DNA of 64,000 nucleotides from Octopus vulgaris (Eukaryota). Below, one piece after another: positions 8,834-63,136 of the stretch. The DNA lies in contig OX597833.1 of NCBI GenBank assembly GCA_951406725.2, positions 24,676,001 through 24,740,000 of the forward strand. The letters run 5' to 3'. The position numbers and the translations under genes were made by a program. The notes under the pieces are model-generated. The model did not search any database. It saw only the letters and a list, made by a program, of their open reading frames with translations, and was not told where the DNA came from. The stretch's first letter is position 1. Every line of letters begins with the position of its first letter.

Positions 8834-10121
8834 TCAGGTCTTCCCATACGTTCTGTCCAAATTTTGAATAAAGAAACTAGTGATCAAATGTTATATTTAA
8901 TTGAAATTGAATCATCAATGTACTTTCACTGATTATCTATGACTTCCTTCCATGTATTTACAAGCTTTTTAATCCCATCAATGTAAAGCTCTTTTCGTTT
9001 CAAAAGGAAGAACTCTGAATTGTCAGTTTCGACCTCCTCCTGGCTTGCAAAATTTATGTCCCACAAATGATTCTGTAAACTACGAAACAAATGGTAATCT
9101 GAAGGAGCAAGATCGGGAGAATAAGGTGGGTGAGGAATTTTTTCCCAACCAAGCTCTTCGATCTTTTGTGATGTGATCTTCGCAGTGTGGGGTCACGCAA
9201 TGTCCTGATGAAACTTCACTCCTTTTCGATTCTCGAAAGCGGGTCTTTTTTTCTTCAAAGCTTAGTTCAAACGCTCTAATTGCTGACAGTAGACTTGAAC
9301 ATTGATTGTTGCATTGGGTGGTAACAGTTCAAAGGAAATTACTCTTTGCAATCACACCAGATAGGGAGAAGAATCTTTTTTTCCATGAAGTTCCCTTCTC
9401 GGTTGTGGTTGAGCATTTTCCCTTTTACCAAGCCACTGTTTACGACGTTTAACATTTCGATAGATGATCCATTTTTCGTCACCAGTCACAAGTCTATCCA
9501 AAAAGGGTGAAATGAGTTCGTGAGAATGGAGAGAAGAGCAGATGTCAAATCGGGATTTGCGGTTGCATTCAGACAATTCATGAGGCACCCATTTTTCAAG
9601 TTTAGGAATATTTCCAAGTTGTTGAAGTTGTATGGTTGAACAGTTGTATGGTTTGAACTAAGCTTTATTGCCAATTCGTCAACTGATAATGCAGGATTTT
9701 CTTCAAGCAATCCTCAAGGAGCTTATCATCAAACTCAACTGGACGTCCTGTCCGATCTTCATCTTCAAGACTGAAATCTCCACTTCTGAATTTTGCAAAC
9801 CATCTTCTGCAAGTTCTTTCATTCAAGCATTCTTTCCCATAAACTGAGTGTATGTTTCGAGTCGCTTCGGCTGCAGAGTTTCCTTTTTTGAACTCATAAA
9901 GCATTATGTGCCTTAAATGCTCTTTGGATACTTCCATGTTAGAAAGGGTTTTAATCAAAGAAAATTTAATTCTCTTATTCTGTAAAATAATATTTAATTA
10001 GTTTAAATGTACACAAACGCAGAAAAATAATTTTTAATTCCATTAGACATTCTAAAATACTATTAAATTTCATTCAAACTTAAAAAGGGTAAAATCGGAC
10101 AAAACTTATGGGATGACCTGA
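8834..10121 (-). mobile_element. Full-length mariner transposon (1288 bp), inactive
   Basis: TIRs tcaggtcttcccatacgttctgtcc / ggacaaaacttatgggatgacctga, TA on both flanks. Confidence 0.92.
8900..9937 (-). pseudogene. Mariner DD34D transposase pseudogene (Hsmar1/cecropia-like)
   Basis: MEVSKEHLRHIMLYEFKKGNSAAEATRNI, WFAKFRSGDFSLEDEDRTGRP, PHEL, VTGDEKW, PYSPDLAPSDYHLF; split over several frames. Confidence 0.9.
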
Positions 10122-17886: not shown

Positions 17887-18145
17887 TTGCAGTGTGGAAG
17901 GTGTTTGTAAGCCATTTAAGAAACACACAAAAACCGTTACATTCACTTCAACATTTAAATTTAATTTGCCAAAATATTTTCGTCGCTTTGAGACCGCGAC
18001 CTGTTCACTGACAAAAATATCGTGCTAACAGGTCGCGGTCTCAAAGCGACGAAAATATTTTGACAAATTAAATTTAAATGTTGAAGTGAATCTAACGGTT
18101 TTTGTGTGTTTCTTAAATGGCTTATAAACACCTTCAACGCTGCAA
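17887..18145. repeat. Long foldback palindrome, ~119-bp arms and ~21-nt loop
   Basis: 17887-18005 is the reverse complement of 18027-18145 with few mismatches; flanked by TA-rich microsatellite. Confidence 0.92.
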
Positions 18146-30805: not shown

Positions 30806-32414
30806 CAGTTGCGGCCAAAATGTTCAGAACGGCATTGTTTTCAGCAGAAAAGTAGGTATAAGTTTTTATCAAAGTTGTTTTATATTCTATAATTTTCACA
30901 GACAATAAATACGAAATTATTTGTTATTGTTGAGATTTTGGTGTAATTTGAGAGGATAGTGCAAAAGTTATGTATGATTTAGTGATTTACTGCAAAACCA
31001 ATGGCGGCCAAAATGATCAGAACGGTTGCTTTTACTCCGTGTTTTAGTTTATTTAACCGGCGAACTCTAATGTTTTGAATTTGTTTACGTGAAGGTTCGT
31101 TTACTAAACATTAATAAGAATATCTGCAGTGTATTTTGTTAATATAATGCTACTTACTCCGTTAGCAATTCGTCAGCAGATTATTAAGCTTCGAAGGATA
31201 GATAAGTTAAGTATTGGGTCTATTGCAAAGTTTGTTAACAAGTCAAAAAGTGTTGTTCACGGTATTCTTAAGGTCTACGATGATTGTGGTTCGTGTGAAA
31301 CAAGAAAGTTTACAGGTAGGCCAAGAAAAACGACCAAGAGAAAAGATCGTGCTATGGTAAAGTTGGTTAAAAAGGACAGATTTAAAACTGCTGCTGCTGT
31401 TTCTCGGGAAATGAGCATTGTGCTGAAAAACTGTCTCGTCGTTTAGTTGAACATGACCTACAAGCAAGAGCACCTGCAGTGAAGCCACTGATTAGCTCCA
31501 AGAATAAAAAGTGTCGTCTTACCTTTGCAACCGAACATGTGTTGTGGTCTCAAGAAAAATGGCAAACGGTGCATTTCAGTGATGAATCTAAGTTTATGTT
31601 ATTTGGCTCAGATGGGAAAAGGTACGTTCGTCGAAAAGTAGGTGAAAAATTGTCGCCTAAATGCCTTACGACTAGTGTTAAATTCGGTGAAGGAAGTGTC
31701 ATGGTTTGGGGGATGATATCTGGAGATGGTGTGGGCTCTTTGGTGCGATTACATGGAAAGGTAAATGCAGTAGTTTATAAACAACTTGTAAAAGATCATG
31801 TCTTGCCTGTGCTGAGAAATTCAACTAAGCGACCACCCATATTCATGCAGCACAATGCCCCATCTCACAAGGCTAAGGTGGTCATGAACTTCCTCAAGGC
31901 TGAAAAGGTTATTGTTATGGATAGGCTTGCTCAAAGCCCAGATCTCAATCCTATTGAAAATGTGTGGAATATTCTAGGAGACGGTTCGAAAGTCAGAAAT
32001 CCTAAAACAACCGAGTAATTATGGAATGCCCTTCAGGAAGAATGAAATAAGATCACCCAGCAACAAATTGAAAATTTAATTTCCTCATGCAGTCGAAGAT
32101 GTCAAAGTGTGATTGAAGCTAAAGGGCTTCACACTAAATATTAAATAATTCCAGTATTCTCTGTCATTTTTGATTATTTTGTTATATTTCAACCGTTCTG
32201 ATCATTTTGGCCGCCATGGGTTTTGCAGTAAATCACTAAATCATACGTAACTTTTGTATTATCCTCTCAAATTACACCAAGATCTCAGACAATAACAAAT
32301 AATATTGTATGTATTGTCTGTGAAAATTATAGAATATAAAACAACTTTGATAAAAAAATTATACCTACTTTTCTGACGAAAACAATGCCGTTCTGAACAT
32401 TTTGGCCGCAACAG
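30806..32414 (+). mobile_element. Tc1-family transposon with ~225-bp IR/DR terminal inverted repeats
   Basis: TIRs 30806-31028 and 32190-32414, each with two gcggccaaaatg(t/a)tcagaacgg direct repeats; TA flanks. Confidence 0.93.
31147..32144 (+). pseudogene. Tc1 DD34E transposase pseudogene
   Basis: GRPRKTT, VHFSDESKF, VMVWG, FMQHNAPSH (second D mutated to H), QSPDLNPIENVW; frameshift near 31430 and stops after 32015. Confidence 0.9.
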
Positions 32415-35956: not shown

Positions 35957-36338
35957 CAATCAAATGAATAACATATGATAGATAAAGCTGTTTATTACGT
36001 AACTTTTTATAGAAGAATGAGAACATTACTGCATCACAAAAACCGTAATCATAAGATGAGAAGTAATTTTACAAACAAAAGAATATGCCAACTATGAATT
36101 AAAATATGAAATGGGAGAATGCATTCTCCCGTTTCATGGACTCCTGGCACATTTCATACACTCCAGTTACATCCCGGCTGTATTCCTGGGATATTCTTTT
36201 GCTTGTGAATTTACTTCTCATCTAATGATTATGGTCGTTTGTAATGGAGTAATGTAATCATTATTTTATTAAAAAGTTGCGTAAGAAACAGCTGCAATGG
36301 GCTGACAATTATCCCTCGCATGATATTATTCATTTGAT

Positions 36339-37052: not shown

Positions 37053-37490
37053 CTTTGTTTTCTTCTTTCTTATTTGTGTTTCTCCTTACTAACCGTCAGC
37101 CATTTTGTATTTCTATTGTATGTCTTCATTTGCGCATGCTTATATCTCTATGTGCGTTTATGTTTATTTAGTGTGTGTATGTGGGGGGATGCCTGTAATA
37201 TTTGTATCTTCTATTTATATATGTTCATGTAATTTGTAATTTTATATGTTCATGTAATTTGTATTTTGCTTTTTGTTTTTTGTTTTTGTTGTTTTTGTTT
37301 TTGTTTATTCTTATTTTATTCATGTGTTTACATCCACTTATTATTATCATTACATATGCTTGTATGTATGTATGTATGTATAACAACAATACTAGTAATA
37401 ATAATAATAAATTGAATCGAAAATATGTATATATATATATATATATAGTTATTTATTTCTATTAGTTTATTTATCTGTGTAGTTATTATA

Positions 37491-38018
37491 AATTTACTGC
37501 AGTTACGGGGAGGGGGAAATTCTCTGTTATGGTAAAAAAAAATAGTTGTAAAAAACAGCATATCTATCCAGTGTTACTACCTTCCGGAATGAATTTTCCT
37601 CAACTGTACCTGCAGTGAATGTACCTTTAGCAGTTGAAGTATATCACAAACATATTTAACTTACCCACAGTTCACTTATGCCTAAACACTGCTTGGCACT
37701 GATATTACTGTAATTTTCCCGACCTTGGCGTTCAAGTGGCGCAAATCCGTCAATGTTGTTGACTGTGTTTTAGTTAAAGCCACAGCTTGATAAGGTCAGT
37801 CAGGAGTTGATTCACTTCAGTATTTCCTATTAAGAAGGGCTAAGAAGGTAGAAACTTGCACGTCTGGAAATTCGCAAGGTAGCAGCACTAGACAGATAGG
37901 GTGTTTTCTCCACGGTAACATCAGTGAGATACTCTTTAGCAGTGAAAATGTGTCACAGACATATTTTAAGAAACAAAGTTTGCCTATGCCTAAATACAGC
38001 TCGGCGCTGATATTACTG

Positions 38019-38059
<41 letters not shown>

Positions 38060-40489: not shown

Positions 40490-41410
40490 ACTAATATTTA
40501 AATATTCGTGCATATCTGTATTGAACCACATGCTTTGTTATATTTCTTTATCTTTCACCATCTTTGCGGCAGATTCATGATCCCATCTTCCTGGATCACG
40601 AACTGATATATGTGGTTTTTATGGCCTTCTAGGAAGTTGAAATTCATCTCATTAGAAAACATTTTGTGGGGATCGAAATAAACTGTAATCTGAAAGTGTA
40701 AGGTCAAGTGAGAGCTATGAGCGTAGTAGGACATCCCAACCAAGCTCTACCAAGGAAATACGCCAATTCAGGGCGTTTTTCTTTGATTGCCACCTTTAAA
40801 CGATTGATTTAATTGAAAGCAATGATATCTGAATTCGGCACCTGATTTTGCTGAAGGAACTCGAAATGAACAATGCTCATCAGAATGAAATGAACAATTC
40901 CCATCAGATACAAAGCATCCTTCGGATATTGACCGGGTTTTAGAATGAGTACAGGTGGTTCATATTGTTTTACCGGGATCTCTTCCACTCCATATTATGT
41001 TTGTTCTTTTAAAAAGTGGGACGTTTATGTTGAGTTTAAACATAAATGAAATTGCGGTCCTCTAATTTTCTTTTACTGCTTAATGATGAGGCACACAAAA
41101 TCACAGTGATTCACATATCCAAGTGTTCTTAAATATCGTATACGCTCATATAAGTTTTGTGTAGTATTTCTGTGATATCGCATCGTGTTACTTGGATTAC
41201 TTTTGATTAGCGCTTCGATCTGGTTATCATCAACGATTGTATGCTTACCGGAACGTTCACCGTATTCTAGATCCAAACTTTCACCCCATAACCTTCTTGA
41301 GAACCACTTACGAATAGTCTTCTCAGCTCTGGAGCCATCACCATAAACTGCGCATTATTTTTTCCTGTTAAATCAAAGTTTGTCCCATTTTTTAAAAAGA
41401 GCATCAAATG
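40490..41410 (-). pseudogene. Highly decayed mariner transposase
   Basis: AVYGDGSRAEKTIRKWF, ERSGKHTIVDDNQIEALIKSNP, EDGIMNLPQRW. Confidence 0.7.
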
Positions 41411-41775
41411 GTCAAATAGTGATACATATGTATATCATCAGTAACTTGCTTCAGCCGGTAGAATCCTGTCAAACTGGGGCACCGCTTTGAAGGAATTTTT
41501 CTGAAGAAATAAATCCAAATAATCATTTTGTCCCAAACTCGGTGCTTGAATAAGCACGAGCTTGGGTCATTTTCGTTAAACTTCTAAGTTAGGGGGATAT
41601 AATCTTTCGTACCGTTACCGTACATTGAATTTGTTAGCAAGTTATGGGCTGTAGAAAGTGATATTAACCTATGATACGATGCAGTGATATAAAACCTCAG
41701 ACCTTATAGTTGCAAAGCAAACTTCTTTATCGTTCAATAACACTGCGCTTACATACTTACATACACACGCACGTA

Positions 41776-41941: not shown

Positions 41942-42093
41942 TGCTTTGTTAGTATTTCGTGTGTGCATGTATGTATAGGTATTTGTGTGTGTGGGTATGT
42001 GTACGTGTGTGTCTTACTATGTGTATGTGGGTGTGAGTGTGTGAGTGTGTATTTCTGTGTGTGTGTGTGTGTGTATTTATTGGTTCATTTTTG

Positions 42094-42330
42094 TATTCTT
42101 TCGCTTGTTTCCATAATTGTTGACTGCGGCCGGGGAGAGGCACAAACTTCAATGGTTTCTTTTTTAGTCGGGGGAATCGGCCCCTGGACTTTTTTTTATT
42201 GTAAGGCCTGGGCACTTATTCCATCGGTCCCTTTTTGCCGAGCTGCTGGGTTGCAGGGACGTGGACACACCGGCGCCGGTTGCCTGGTGGTGGCGGAAGA
42301 CGGGCGCGGGAACACATGCGCGCACACACA
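42094..42330 (-). mobile_element. SINE family B 3' half, heavily A->G substituted on the + strand
   Basis: gctgggttgcagggacgtggacacaccggcg versus family gctaagttacggggacgtaaacacaccagca; gacgggcgcggg versus gacaaacacaga. Confidence 0.85.
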
Positions 42331-42349
42331 CTCATGTATATATACATAT

Positions 42350-42763
42350 AGGCGCAGGAGTGGCTGTGTGGTAAGAAGCTTGCTTCTCAACCTCATGATC
42401 CTGGGTTCAGTCCTACTGCGTTGCACCTTGGGCAAGTTTCTTCTGCTATAGCCCCGGGCCGACCAAAGCCTTGTGAGTGGATTTGGTAGACGGAAACTGA
42501 AAGAAGCCTGTCGTATATATATATATATATATATGTACGTATGTATGTTTGTGTGTCTGTGTTTGTCTCCCTAGCATTGCTTGACAACCGATGCTGGTGT
42601 GTTTGCGTCCCCGTAACTTGGCGGTTCGGCAAAAAGAGACCGATAGGATAAGTACTGGGCTTACGAAGAATAGGTCCCGGGGTCGATTTGCTCGACTAAA
42701 ATGCGGTGCTCCGGCATGGCCACAGTCGACTGGCTGAAGCAGGTAAAAGAGTAAAAGAGTAAA
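42350..42763 (+). mobile_element. SINE family B, full length, inverted relative to 42094-42330
   Basis: aggcgcaggagtggctgtgtgg head to (gtaaaaga)n tail; about 10 A->G changes in the 3' half. Confidence 0.9.
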
Positions 42764-43561
42764 GTGTAACTACATGGGTTGATACATTTGATTAAAAACA
42801 TCCTTCAAGGCAGTGCTCCAGCATGGCCACAGTCTAATGATGATATAAGTAAAAGATAACAGATGAAAGATGTGTGTGTGTCCCACTTATGCACAAAGAA
42901 AACTTGAGCAATGGATCTGTTCTGAGGTATTAAACAATGCAACAGTAGAAAGCACATGCACACACACACACAGACACACTGCACATACTCACACACACAT
43001 ATACACATGCATGCACACATACAAACACGTACACACATGCATGCACATACACATACAAACATACACACACACGCACACACACATAAAGACACGCATGAAC
43101 ATACACACACATACAGATATGCTGTACATGCTCACACACCCTCGCACACACACACACACACATGCACACACACAGACGTACAGATACAGATACACAAATG
43201 CATGCACACCCACACGCATACACATGCACACACACATATAGACGCACTTGCACAAACACACACACATGTACACACACATACAGACAAACATGCACATACA
43301 TACACACATTCGTACACACATGCACATACACACACACAGACAGACAGGCAAACACACACACATACAGACTAGCAAGCACACACACATTCTTACACACATA
43401 CACACACACACACACAGACAGACAGGCAAGCACACACACCCTTTGACATATTTTTTTGGTATTCTTTGTCTGACTGCATCTATAAATATGTGTGTGTCTA
43501 TACTTAAATATACATACATATTAACATACAAACATATATACATACACATATATACACATAT

Positions 43562-44480
43562 AGGCGAAGTCATGGCTCTGTGGTAAGAAGCTTGCTTCCC
43601 AACCACATGGTTCTGGGTTCAGTCCCACTGCATGCCAACTTGGGCAAGTGTCTTCTACTGTAGCCCTGGGCCGACAAAAACCTTGTGACTGGGTTTGACA
43701 GATGGAAACTGAAAGAAGCCCATCATATATCATCATCGTCATCATTTAGTATCTGCTTTCTATGCTGGCATAGGTCAGATGGTTTGACTGGGACCAGTAA
43801 GCCAGAGAGATGTACCGAGTTCTGATCTGATATGGCATGGTTTCTGCGGCTGGTTGTTCTTCTTGACGGCAACCACACCCAAGAATGAGAAAAAAAAAAC
43901 TATTGAAAAGATTAAGTAAAGATTTCAGGAGTGGCTGTGTGGTAGGTAGCTTTCTTACCAACCACGTGGTTCCGGGTTCAGTCCCACTGCGTGGCATCTT
44001 GAGCAGGTGTCTTCTGCTATAGCCTCGGGCCGACCGATGCCTTGTGGGTGGATTTGGTAGACGGAAACTGAGAGAAGCCCGTCGTATATATGTATTTATA
44101 TGTATGTATGTGTGTATGTTTGTGTCTCTGTGTCTGTTCCCCCTAGCATTGCATGACAACCGATGCTGGTGTGTTTACGTCCCCGTCACTTAGCGGTTCG
44201 GCAAAAGAGACCGATAGAATAAGTACTGCGCTTACAAAAGAATAAGTCCTGGGGTCGATTTGCTCGACTAAAGGCGGTGCTCCAGCATGGCCGCAGTCAA
44301 ATGACTGAAACAAGTAAAAGAGTAAAGAGTATATGCATGTATATATACGTGTGTGTATGTGTTTATAAGGTACGCATAGGCGCAGGCTTGACTGTGCGGT
44401 AAGAAGTTTGCTTCCCAACCACATGGTTTAGGGTTCAGTTTCACTACGTGTATTCTGGGTAAGTATCTTCTACTACAATA
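43562..44480 (+). mobile_element. SINE cluster: family B head 43562-43725, RTE-tail-type SINE end (-) ~43730-43880, family B 43926-44330, family B head 44378-44480
   Basis: Matches to family B; catcatcgtcatcattt...ggcatggtttctgcggctgg tail type. Confidence 0.8.
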
Positions 44481-46873: not shown

Positions 46874-47163
46874 AAAAGGAAATGAAGAAAATGCTGACAA
46901 AATAATTTAAGTAATTTAAGTAATTTAATTAGGTGAAAGTTCTTTTTACCGGTTGCGCATTTGTTAGGCTTATCAAAATTTTTTTAAGAGAGAAAGAGTT
47001 CCTTTCTGATAGATTTTTTCCTCTTGAAAAAATCTATCAGAAAGGAACTCTTTCTCTCTTAAAAAAATTTTGATAAGCATAACAAATGCGCAAAGAACTT
47101 TCACCTAATTAAATTACTTAAATTACTTAAATTATTTTGTCATCATTTTCTTCATTTCCTTTT
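46874..47163. repeat. Long foldback palindrome, ~140-bp arms and 5-7-nt loop, inside (TA)n
   Basis: 46874-47019 pairs with 47027-47163; the left arm has an extra ~9 nt around accgg. Confidence 0.92.
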
Positions 47164-47909: not shown

Positions 47910-48102
47910 TGTTGTGTCTGAGGAGACTCATTTTCTTTTTGTGCCTTATAATTTAACACACTCACCGGTGAAATTTCCACTTATTTCTTATTTTTATTGT
48001 TTTTTTTTAAATTTTTATAAATAAGAAATAAGTGGAAATTTTACCGATGAGTGTGTTAAATTATAAGGCACAAAAAGAAAATGAGTCTTCCCAGACACAA
48101 CA
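47910..48102. repeat. Foldback palindrome, ~84-bp arms
   Basis: 47910-47993 pairs with 48019-48102. Confidence 0.9.
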
Positions 48103-53555: not shown

Positions 53556-56336
53556 ATTGAAATCCTTGTTTTAAAAATAATTAGTCCGTTTTTTTTTCGT
53601 TTTTAAATTTAAAACAGTTCTCATTAGTGTCTTATCTTTTTGCTCTCCATCTCTCTCCATTTCTCTATATCTCTCTTTCTCTCAATGATGATGTAAGGGT
53701 CAGAATTTCTTATTTTGCCTTCAAAGTCTTATTTTAGGTTATTGGCTGAGATGCATCAGTTATGGCAGCTGTTAGAGTATCGAACAAAATCTCACCCACT
53801 ATTTAATCTGTTCCTGTGTTCAAATCCTGTTAAGAATGAGTCAGCACTCATTTTTCCAAAGTCGAACATTAAGTGAATGCAAGTCAAGTAATGGTTCGCT
53901 TTAATTACATGTATTCCTCCTCCAGGAAGAACCTTTCCGTTGGAATATTCGATTCCTACCTATTAGTCCATTTTTCCCGATCATACTAGTGCCAACGTTT
54001 CACTTTGACGGTGGTGACATAACATAGTTAAATACGTATCTTTTTAGTGTGAATTTTTTCAAAAACCACTCCTATTTTAAAAAATTTTGCCTTTTAATTT
54101 TTGAACAGTCTTTGATTTCTAATGTTCTGAGACTCCAAATTAGAATGAAATAATAAATAAAATAAAATATAAGAGAACATGTAATTACATTTTCATCCTT
54201 AATTAAATGGAACTGAAGCTAAAGCATTCTACATTTTCAGAATGTGAAACGACTAATGGTTTCAAATGTAAACAAATTATATTTATATAGTACAAATGTA
54301 AAATTCGCTTCGTTATGCTAGTCAGTTTCTGATTAAAAAAGAATTTAATTAAATATTTTTTATTATAAAATATTTTATATTATTTATTTAGAGTTTCTAA
54401 ATGTCTGGTATCTCAAAGCATAATAATCGAAGATACTTAAAGAAAATATTGTAAGAAATTTAAGGGTCCTAAAGAATTTTCATTTGTGGCATGGGTATAG
54501 CCAATTAAATCGACTTCAGTATTTGGTTTACAGTTTATTTCACGCATCCCCTGAAGGGCGGGACGAAATGTTGATCTCAGAAGGGTTTGAACTTCGCTGT
54601 ACATAGTCTTAAGTAAACACTGCAAACTACGATTCTGGTTGCTGCTGTCGGAGCTGGAGTGTGATGAGCTTCAGCACGTCTAAAGCTGCATAACACACCG
54701 TATATCATGACTGCACAGTAGTTTTGACTCAATCAAAGAAGAGAAGGCCCAAGGTGAATATTCATTATATCATTATTGTTGTTTTACCTTGCAGTCCGAT
54801 GAGCTAACAGGATCATTAGATCGCCGAAGAAAATAGTTTACTGCTTTTATTTCTATTGTACCAGTCAAGTACTGACGTTAGTTATATAATCTGCCACTAA
54901 TAGAAACCATTAATATGATATGCAGCGGCGTATTGATTTGGAAGAATCGTCAAGCGGTTGGCCAAATATCTTGCGGCTGTTCCCGCAGGTTCCCCCTCTG
55001 AATTGATATCCCACCACGGTGAAATTTCCCTTTTATTTCCCAGGGGGGCATTAATATAAAGTACCAGTCAAATATTTGGTTATCACCTGTCCCCAAATCT
55101 TCCGGCCTTGCGTCTATAATAATATAGACGTCGTTGTCCACGGCATATATCGATAAAAAATGTTTTGAAATGCATATATACAACGAAAATTGTATAAAGG
55201 ATTCAGCTGGTGATTTGAGTATAATATTTATTAAAATTTTATTGGGAAGGCCTTCGAATTCTCTTGAATTTTGGCTTCATTAAACAAGAAAAAAACCCCT
55301 AAAAGCAAACGTGAGAAGTAAAACGTAAATAAATGATAAAAATAATAAAAAAGATTTTTGTCGAAATGTTTTGGTGGAAACAAATATGCGATAATTTTGA
55401 TACAGTATTGTATTCTTAAATTGTGCTTCAAAAGCAAATTGGTGTTATCTTAGGGTATCTTAATAAAGCGTGAACTCACGCACATGAACAGGCATCTTAT
55501 GACTCTTGTCTTCTACTTGTTACATGGTTTGTGAAGCAAAATGCGCGTCCTTCTGCCTATGTTAAGAATCATCAAGAAACAACTTCCTCCTCCTCCTTCC
55601 CCTCCTTCTCCTCATTATTATTATTTTCGCTAAATTCTTTCAGTATGTGTTTAGAAAATTGATGTGACATGGTGTGTGAGTTAAATTAGGCGTTTACTGA
55701 CAAAAAGACCATACTGGGTGTAGTATATAAAATGTGGGGGTTGCCTGAGACGTGAACTTAACTATCGGTGTCTTATATATAGTTTTAATGGATTTTTAAT
55801 AGGATAATAACAGGGGCTTTGAACGGATGATTAAATAATAATTTTTTTCTTTTACTTTTCATTTACGCTTCATTGAAATATTTCAATGGTCACCAAGATG
55901 ACAACTGACTACGGCTTGGAATTTAATGACAAAAATGAAGAAAAATCCCCATGGCTTTGTAACTACACACAGACACATAAAGGAAAAAGAGCGAAGAGGA
56001 AGAACTCAGGGTGGCCTGTGACACGTTTTTGATCAACATACACAAATACAGTTATTTGTAATGACATACAGCAAAAGGTTTTGGTTTATTAAAATTATCT
56101 TTGTCTCTAGGGCATGTATCGTAATTACAAAGAGGCGATTATGACCAACTCCACGTTAAAAGGGGAGATAAACTTAAGAACCAAGAACTTCTCCAAATTA
56201 ACATGCCGTGAAGGAAAAAGACAGGCTTATGCTCTTAGTATAACAGGGCAATCGTGGATACGTGATGATCGCTCTACACCCGTCATCAGGGCAATTGTGC
56301 GACCTCATCTCCAGTCGTCAAAAATGAGTGTATATA

Positions 56337-62243: not shown

Positions 62244-62286
<43 letters not shown>

Positions 62287-62815
62287 CAGTAATATCAGCG
62301 CCGAGCTGTATTTAGGCATAGGCAAACTTTGTTTCTTAAAATATGTCTGTGACACATTTTCACTGCTAAAGAGTATCTCACTGATGTTACCGTGGAGAAA
62401 ACACCCTATCTGTCTAGTGCTGCTACCTTGCGAATTTCCAGACGTGCAAGTTTCTACCTTCTTAGCCCTTCTTAATAGGAAATACTGAAGTGAATCAACT
62501 CCTGACTGACCTTATCAAGCTGTGGCTTTAACTAAAACACAGTCAACAACATTGACGGATTTGCGCCACTTGAACGCCAAGGTCGGGAAAATTACAGTAA
62601 TATCAGTGCCAAGCAGTGTTTAGGCATATGTGAACTGTGGGTAAGTTAAATATGTTTGTGATATACTTCAACTGCTAAAGGTACATTCACTGCAGGTACA
62701 GTTGAGGAAAATTCATTCCGGAAGGTAGTAACACTGGATAGATATGCTGTTTTTTACAACTATTTTTTTTTACCATAACAGAGAATTTCCCCCTCCCCGT
62801 AACTGCAGTAAATTT
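62140..62815 (-). repeat. Right arm of the inverted duplication (partner 37491-38160)
   Basis: Reverse complement of 37491-38160. Confidence 0.93.
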
Positions 62816-63136
62816 GCCTTTAGAAGTTGAAATATGTCATTAGCACATTTTAAGTAACCTAAAGTTTGCTTATGCTTAAACACTGCTTGGCGCTGATATT
62901 ACTGTAATTTTCAGGAACTTCGAGGTCTACAGACGTAAATCAGTCAATGATGTAGACTGTATTTAAAGCCACGGCTTGATTAGGTCTGTCCAGAGTTGCC
63001 TCTCTTCATTATTTCTCACTGAAAACGCCTAAGACACTAGAAACTTAGATATCTGGAAGTTCGGAAGGTGGCAGCATTTATCTCCAGGGTAGCTGCAGGG
63101 AATTTGGCTTTAGCATTTAAAATATGTCACATATTT
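62803..63136 (+). repeat. Diverged copy of the ~300-bp repeat unit, opposite in orientation to 62283-62700
   Basis: cctttagaagttgaaatatgtca...taaacactgcttggcgctgatattactgtaatttt...ctttagcatttaaaatatgtcac. Confidence 0.8.

Follow-up and report, generated by a model that had tools for sequence, protein, structure and literature searches.

The locus analysed here lies in a 64,000-base window of Octopus vulgaris DNA, to which all coordinates refer, and consists of two SINE-like repeat copies that face opposite ways. The left arm (approximately 42084-42335, minus strand) comes from a copy of an older subfamily and comprises its 3' half, with central microsatellite and tail; no head of this copy was found. 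The right copy is on the plus strand: its head (42352-42512) forms the loop and is followed by a central TA/TG microsatellite, visible in the sequence (42513-42544), and by the tail of a young SINE-like copy (42545-42762), which forms the right arm and ends at its 3' side in short tandem tail repeats. A second tail remnant on the plus strand is located just past the right copy (42776-42863). Folding of the plus strand predicted 171 arm-to-arm pairs, 38 of which are G-U, with a z-score of -15.9 relative to 20 shuffles. Realignment with older copies showed that the left-arm subfamily is the older one and has an insertion that young copies are without, and the many other differences of this arm are explained by its older subfamily. 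Both arms have an extra A (at 42634 and in the partner column of the left arm) within an A-run preceding a conserved core; the extra A at 42634 is missing from the other aligned copies and the shared A is possibly a trace of arm-to-arm conversion.

The focal repeat is represented in the window by about 15 head and about 17 tail segments, and by 150,000-270,000 contig pieces per sequencing run. We take it to be an octopus SINE, a label that relies on structure, copy number and prior knowledge of such elements. Searches of Rfam gave only microsatellite-driven matches to it, all below threshold. The left-arm pattern had no match in metagenome contigs, and the family pattern none in viral or metagenome contigs. 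Protein domains were searched with Pfam in 150 frames, mostly from the 215 passing a length or GC filter, located outside the repeat copies and up to 59.6 kb. No host exon was found among these frames; the only clear domains, and the only hits at or near their cut-offs, were those of Tc1/mariner transposases, next to a few sub-threshold matches.

Tandem repeats account for 10,051 of the 64,000 bases, and the window holds several other repeated structures. A Tc1-like element at 30808-32412 has terminal inverted repeats of about 220 bases and a broken transposase (HTH_Tnp_Tc3_2, DDE_3), and mariner fragments are found at 9355-9997 and 41076-41354. The segments 37490-38020 and 62285-62815 form a 531-base inverted duplicate of 99.8% identity with 24 kb between the copies, likely a recent transposon copy; the second of them overlaps a 72% self-palindrome (62418-63076). 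Foldback (MITE-like) palindromes are present at 17887-18145, 46929-47108, 47910-48102 and 35986-36293, with arm identities of 72-91%, and in none of these four was there an excess of G-T over A-C mismatches.

Strand-specific A>G changes in the arms

A first-pass annotation of the sequence had claimed strand-specific A>G hypermutation in this inverted pair, with about 20 changes in the left arm, about 10 in the right arm, none in the head that forms the loop and a few T>C changes in the left arm. Relative to the in-window consensus, A>G represents 13 of 21 substitutions in the right tail and 1 of 13 in the right head, and the 53 substitutions of the left arm include, on the plus strand, 22 A>G together with 6 T>C. 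With both arms pooled in this first alignment, 35/114 adenosines show A>G and 7/114 thymidines show T>C (p = 1.9e-6), which bears out the strand specificity. Given that the two copies face opposite ways, the bias tracks the locus strand and is independent of how the element is oriented.

An improved alignment including older copies gave 29 A>G sites in the left arm, 4 of them doubtful, and 10 private A>G sites in the right arm, 1 of them doubtful. The excess in the left arm is thus real and had been undercounted, with 25-29 plus-strand sites spanning 42103 to 42322. For the right arm, the earlier figure holds for the 9-10 private sites (42605-42742), and three further G (42574, 42657 and 42751) turned out to be shared subfamily alleles and were dropped. 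Together the arms have 39 A>G per 128 A when all sites are included, or 34 per 123 A under a strict count leaving out the five doubtful sites. The T>C changes of the left arm are indeed few (6-7 on the plus strand) and their columns coincide with none of the right-arm A>G columns, giving no compensatory arm-to-arm change. Plus-strand G>A and C>T each affect 6/100 positions in the arms, and transversions number 18 in the left arm (first alignment) and 2 in the right arm.

The changes are almost confined to the arms. In the loop, spared as had been claimed save for a single site, we found 1 A>G per 34 A, compared with 34/123 to 39/128 in the arms (p = 0.0005-0.001); the one site, 42445, is a common family allele at which A makes up 36% of the piled depth in sequencing run X1 (described below). 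The remnant at 42776-42863 has no A>G among 24 aligned A and so sets the right bound of the changed tract.

The bias is also specific to this locus when compared with other copies of the repeat. Across 26 background segments, A>G (50/1024) and T>C (46/1021) are balanced (p = 0.75) and G>A and C>T predominate; four very old segments, tallied separately, have 15/154 A>G and 16/177 T>C. The A>G share of all substitutions differs between the focal pair and the background with p = 6e-13. No A>G excess was seen in the inverted pairs 50637/50884, 51196/52390 and 50884/52563, of which the first is nearly adjacent and the second is 90% identical. The segment 50637-51090, in which two copies of this family are inverted tail to tail with about 20 bases between them, acts as a negative control.

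The head of a separate plus-strand copy (43926-44084), 1.2 kb away, has 7 A>G among 11 substitutions. Six of these are private (6/33, p = 0.0002-0.005, uncorrected for about 30 segments), making this a possible second, weaker case. The tail of the same copy has no A>G excess and no close inverted partner was found for its head, the nearest being a strongly decayed head at 41647-41727; the copy may have descended from an edited parent RNA. A transition excess in two copies of a second repeat family (54483-54596 and 54935-55118) was examined as well, and hypermutation was ruled out there since the alignment is one of old diverged copies.

We then scored the changed adenosines for pairing and neighbour context. 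Adenosines predicted to pair arm to arm are changed in 29/87 cases versus 5/36 for the others in the strict set (p = 0.03), and in 32/90 versus 7/38 in the inclusive set (p = 0.06). By 3' neighbour (strict set), the changed fractions are 11/26 before G, 13/35 before C, 10/44 before A and 0/18 before T, corresponding to a 3'-T depletion with p = 0.003 and a 3'-G enrichment with p = 0.08; background copies have no such depletion (3'-T 16/257). This 3' pattern matches that reported for metazoan ADAR, which favours a 3' G and disfavours a 3' U (PMC9989829). The 5' neighbour is flat in the strict set (T 7/25, A 10/43, C 11/30, G 6/25). Depletion of 5' G, the context check proposed in the first-pass annotation, is therefore absent (6/25 versus 28/98, p = 0.80, on small numbers), whereas strong 5'-G depletion is described across animals, invertebrates included (PMC5625713; see also PMC9989829). 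Assuming a relative rate of 0.15-0.25 at 5' G and a background of 3-6%, six or more changes out of 25 would arise with a probability of 0.008-0.10. As 5'-G depletion is the strongest of the ADAR rules, its failure here weighs against an ADAR origin, and we therefore describe the pattern as working like ADAR hyper-editing and do not class it as a proven ADAR product. Plus-strand inosine also accounts neither for the T>C changes of the left arm nor for its complex cluster at 42133-42143; these may be a repair scar or reflect the normal divergence expected of an old copy.

The changed arm in independent DNA data

Four runs from four studies were aligned to 42078-42945 at 85% likeness. The runs comprise 2.2-2.7 billion contig letters each; the kind of run is only guessed, and the contig letters together with the numbers of repeat pieces indicate that the runs are genomic. 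In run X4 (organism B), a contig with a depth of 53.3 covers 42078-42363 and spans all 29 left-arm sites with 6 other letters in 285 bases and 1 gap. Run X7 (organism C) has a contig with a depth of 4.63 and, among the differences listed, the same four. Both contigs match the left arm and, at a few places common to the two, differ from the window, and hence are not the source of the window. The left-arm G alleles are genomic, inherited and older than about 2% divergence. At 42311 the window has A, and both X4 and X7 have an additional G.

Run X1 (organism A) is the best sharer of the surrounding 7 kb. Over 42078-42247 it has a 192-base contig, which reaches the left edge of the aligned stretch and differs from the window by 23 letters in 170 bases and 1 gap. 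Among the 13 differences listed, it has A at at least seven sites where the window has G (42132, 42171, 42172, 42174, 42205, 42210 and 42211), so the direction of change is from A to G. At least 12 of the 23 differences are not A/G exchanges and at most 11 are; apart from A/G sites, divergence from the window is about 7% for the X1 contig and about 2% for X4. The contig leans towards being a parent paralogue over a plain allele, at a length too short to place it. A G-form contig over 42078-42247 is not among the X1 contigs listed, which cover about 80% of the run. From about 42301 onward, X1 appeared to cover the locus in the G form; a simulated A-form piece aligns there too under three of four scoring schemes, and we rejected this cover as not diagnostic. 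The absence of cover at 42890-42945 in X1 and X15 carries no evidential weight.

Fragments from run X15 (organism E) have A at 42205, T at 42213 and G at both 42210 and 42211, and these last two sites may hence not be edits. With T in both X1 and X15, the left-arm T>C change at 42213 is derived.

For the right arm, depth piled up genome-wide at the 10 private G sites is 70-95% A; these shares are depth-weighted and skewed to window-like copies; at 42657, A is 16% of the piled depth, marking a true subfamily allele. The right-arm orthologue is hidden beneath the pile of family copies and confirmation by DNA concerns the left arm only. Taken together, the cluster at 42084-42762 is a real, inherited and statistically strong hypermutation at one locus, for which an RNA-to-DNA origin is plausible and unproven.

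Proposed origin and rival explanations

The spared loop, together with changes on one strand in both arms, argues for an agent acting on a self-folded single strand. The agent known in animals to act on duplexes is ADAR, with RNA as its substrate. As the edited state is fixed in DNA, reverse transcription is then required. We consider it somewhat probable that reverse transcription carried an ADAR-edited plus-strand hairpin RNA into germline DNA, either creating a retrocopy or patching the locus in place. Write-back into the genome had been one of two readings offered by the first-pass annotation and is the best explanation of the present data; it would imply plus-strand transcription of 42084-42762. 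In the proposed series of events, a transcript running from the left arm through the loop to the right arm would fold into a duplex of about 170 pairs, in which a duplex-specific adenosine deaminase would convert about 30% of the arm adenosines to inosine and leave the loop untouched. Reverse transcription would be primed at the 3' tail of the right copy, the enzyme probably being supplied by the LINE partner, and inosine would be read as G. The cDNA would then enter the genome either as a new copy of the parent locus, which is slightly favoured, or by in-place replacement from the locus's own transcript, and would be inherited afterwards with about 2% drift between lineages.

The last private change is at 42742 and the copy ends in tail repeats at about 42762, a LINE-type 3' end in which any SINE copy terminates. 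No target-site duplication of 8 or more bases was found near the unit, the left boundary of which sits in a microsatellite; the only candidate is a single 9-mer located 1.4 kb upstream. Among measured hyper-editing signals, that of octopus ranks with the strongest (PMC5625713).

A process that involves no RNA is unlikely but survives best among the rivals: an unrelated DNA-level event, for instance the error-prone filling of a gap at a fragile palindrome with G placed opposite template T on one strand, would account for the flat 5' context, the extra T>C of the left arm and the complex 42133-42143 cluster. Such a process is at odds with the sparing of the loop between the arms (1/34) and with a density of about 30% of A changed when the right arm has just 2 transversions. 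Polymerase eta would favour a 5' A or T neighbour, and ApT is the context of transcription-linked A>G damage; a 5' A/T preference is absent from the changed adenosines (p = 0.54) and none of the 18 A in ApT is changed.

Alternatively, ADAR may have acted on the DNA itself, a reading we regard as slightly less likely still. One arm of the nascent plus-strand RNA would pair with the plus DNA strand displaced at the other arm. Deoxyadenosines in these hybrids would be deaminated to inosine and become G, perhaps in several rounds and with no need for reverse transcription. This would predict changes on one strand and their confinement to the arms, and ADARs are reported to edit DNA within RNA:DNA hybrids in vitro (PMC5389660). 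The further G at 42311 in X4 and X7 could be a later round, although a single reversion explains that difference as well. This reading would require that two hybrids formed separately and that more than 30 sites escaped repair, and three inverted pairs of equal quality elsewhere in the window are unchanged. The 5'-neighbour problem is also the same, since hybrid editing kept the known ADAR preferences in the experiments described there (PMC5389660).

GC-biased gene conversion, a G-rich subfamily or chance are together very unlikely. The two commonest changes of the left arm are both AT-to-GC, and three right-arm G and four left-arm G are present in other copies or runs. Symmetric A>G and T>C, as GC-biased conversion would leave, was not observed (35 versus 7, p = 2e-6), and conversion between the arms cannot produce a G absent from both. 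A subfamily already carrying the G alleles is refuted at most sites by the predominance of A in the piled depth at the 10 right-arm sites and by the A-bearing counterpart in X1, with A at at least 7 sites. The remaining reading of the first-pass annotation, an assembly consensus polished with edited RNA reads, is extremely improbable: X1, the best sharer, does have the A form over 42078-42247 with no G form among its listed contigs (about 80% of the run), and the right arm is without confirmation from other runs, but for the left arm this artefact is refuted by contigs from organisms B and C, from two other studies, which carry the left-arm form (X4 across 42078-42363, X7 with matching listed differences).

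Relation to known systems and meaning

With reverse transcription of an edited hairpin as the preferred reading, the closest precedent is found in avian retroviral proviruses, which contain A>G clusters (Hajjar and Linial, 1995; Felder, 1994; both as cited in the review PMC12925331). In one of these cases, nearly 50% of the A in an inverted repeat region were changed, which that review ascribes to ADAR acting before reverse transcription (PMC12925331). Those proviruses are genomes of viruses that were going through their own cycle of replication, whereas here the changes are in a nuclear pair of host repeats and are inherited across organisms.

Editing in plant mitochondria is of the C-to-U type. 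There, retroprocessing is described in which edited RNA undergoes reverse transcription and its edited state becomes fixed in the genome, often in part of a gene only (PMC4987113). That system concerns organelle genes, with intron loss as its mark; the present locus is a non-coding nuclear hairpin with A-to-I-like hyper-editing.

The best-known inherited deaminase scars are the APOBEC-edited LTR retrotransposons of vertebrates, in which cDNA editing left G>A on the sense strand of the element (PMC4866542, PMC2873906). They resemble our locus in having strand-biased, clustered hypermutation in inherited repeats, with unedited source copies. That screen addressed LTR elements, and in its reported results other cluster types were negligible and invertebrates were at noise level (PMC4866542). 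Here, in contrast, we see A>G changes that go with the locus strand and are linked to a foldback, and G>A and C>T at 6/100 each do not show the APOBEC signature.

ADAR hyper-editing of inverted SINE RNA (PMC4365171, PMC5625713, PMC9989829) is alike in substrate, type of change, density, restriction to one strand in both arms and 3' neighbour; as described in these sources it normally affects RNA only, and its 5'-G depletion is missing here. Within the literature covered, which is only part of the field, no host animal repeat was found to be described as bearing an inherited footprint of the ADAR type. In a population study, polymorphism was 10-15-fold higher at edited sites, a result interpreted there as selection, barring an unknown mechanism that raises A>G mutation at such sites (PMC7186786).

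The hairpin itself is probably a one-off scar without sign of function at a functionless locus, although the second A>G-rich copy at 43926 hints that the event was perhaps not unique. It is conceivable, and for now a tentative idea, that heavily editing animals write ADAR-edited hairpin RNA into the germline with enough frequency to leave a genome-wide class of fossils, made of inverted pairs in which blocks of A>G lie on one strand and for each of which an unedited parent or allele exists. Through a hairpin that is hyper-edited, inherited and matched by an unedited counterpart, the write-back of editing from RNA to DNA can be tested simply by scanning genomes. If the fossil class exists, RNA editing would be a direct mutational source in heavily editing genomes, and ancient germline transcripts would have left in the fossils a record of their strand and structure and of what the enzyme preferred.
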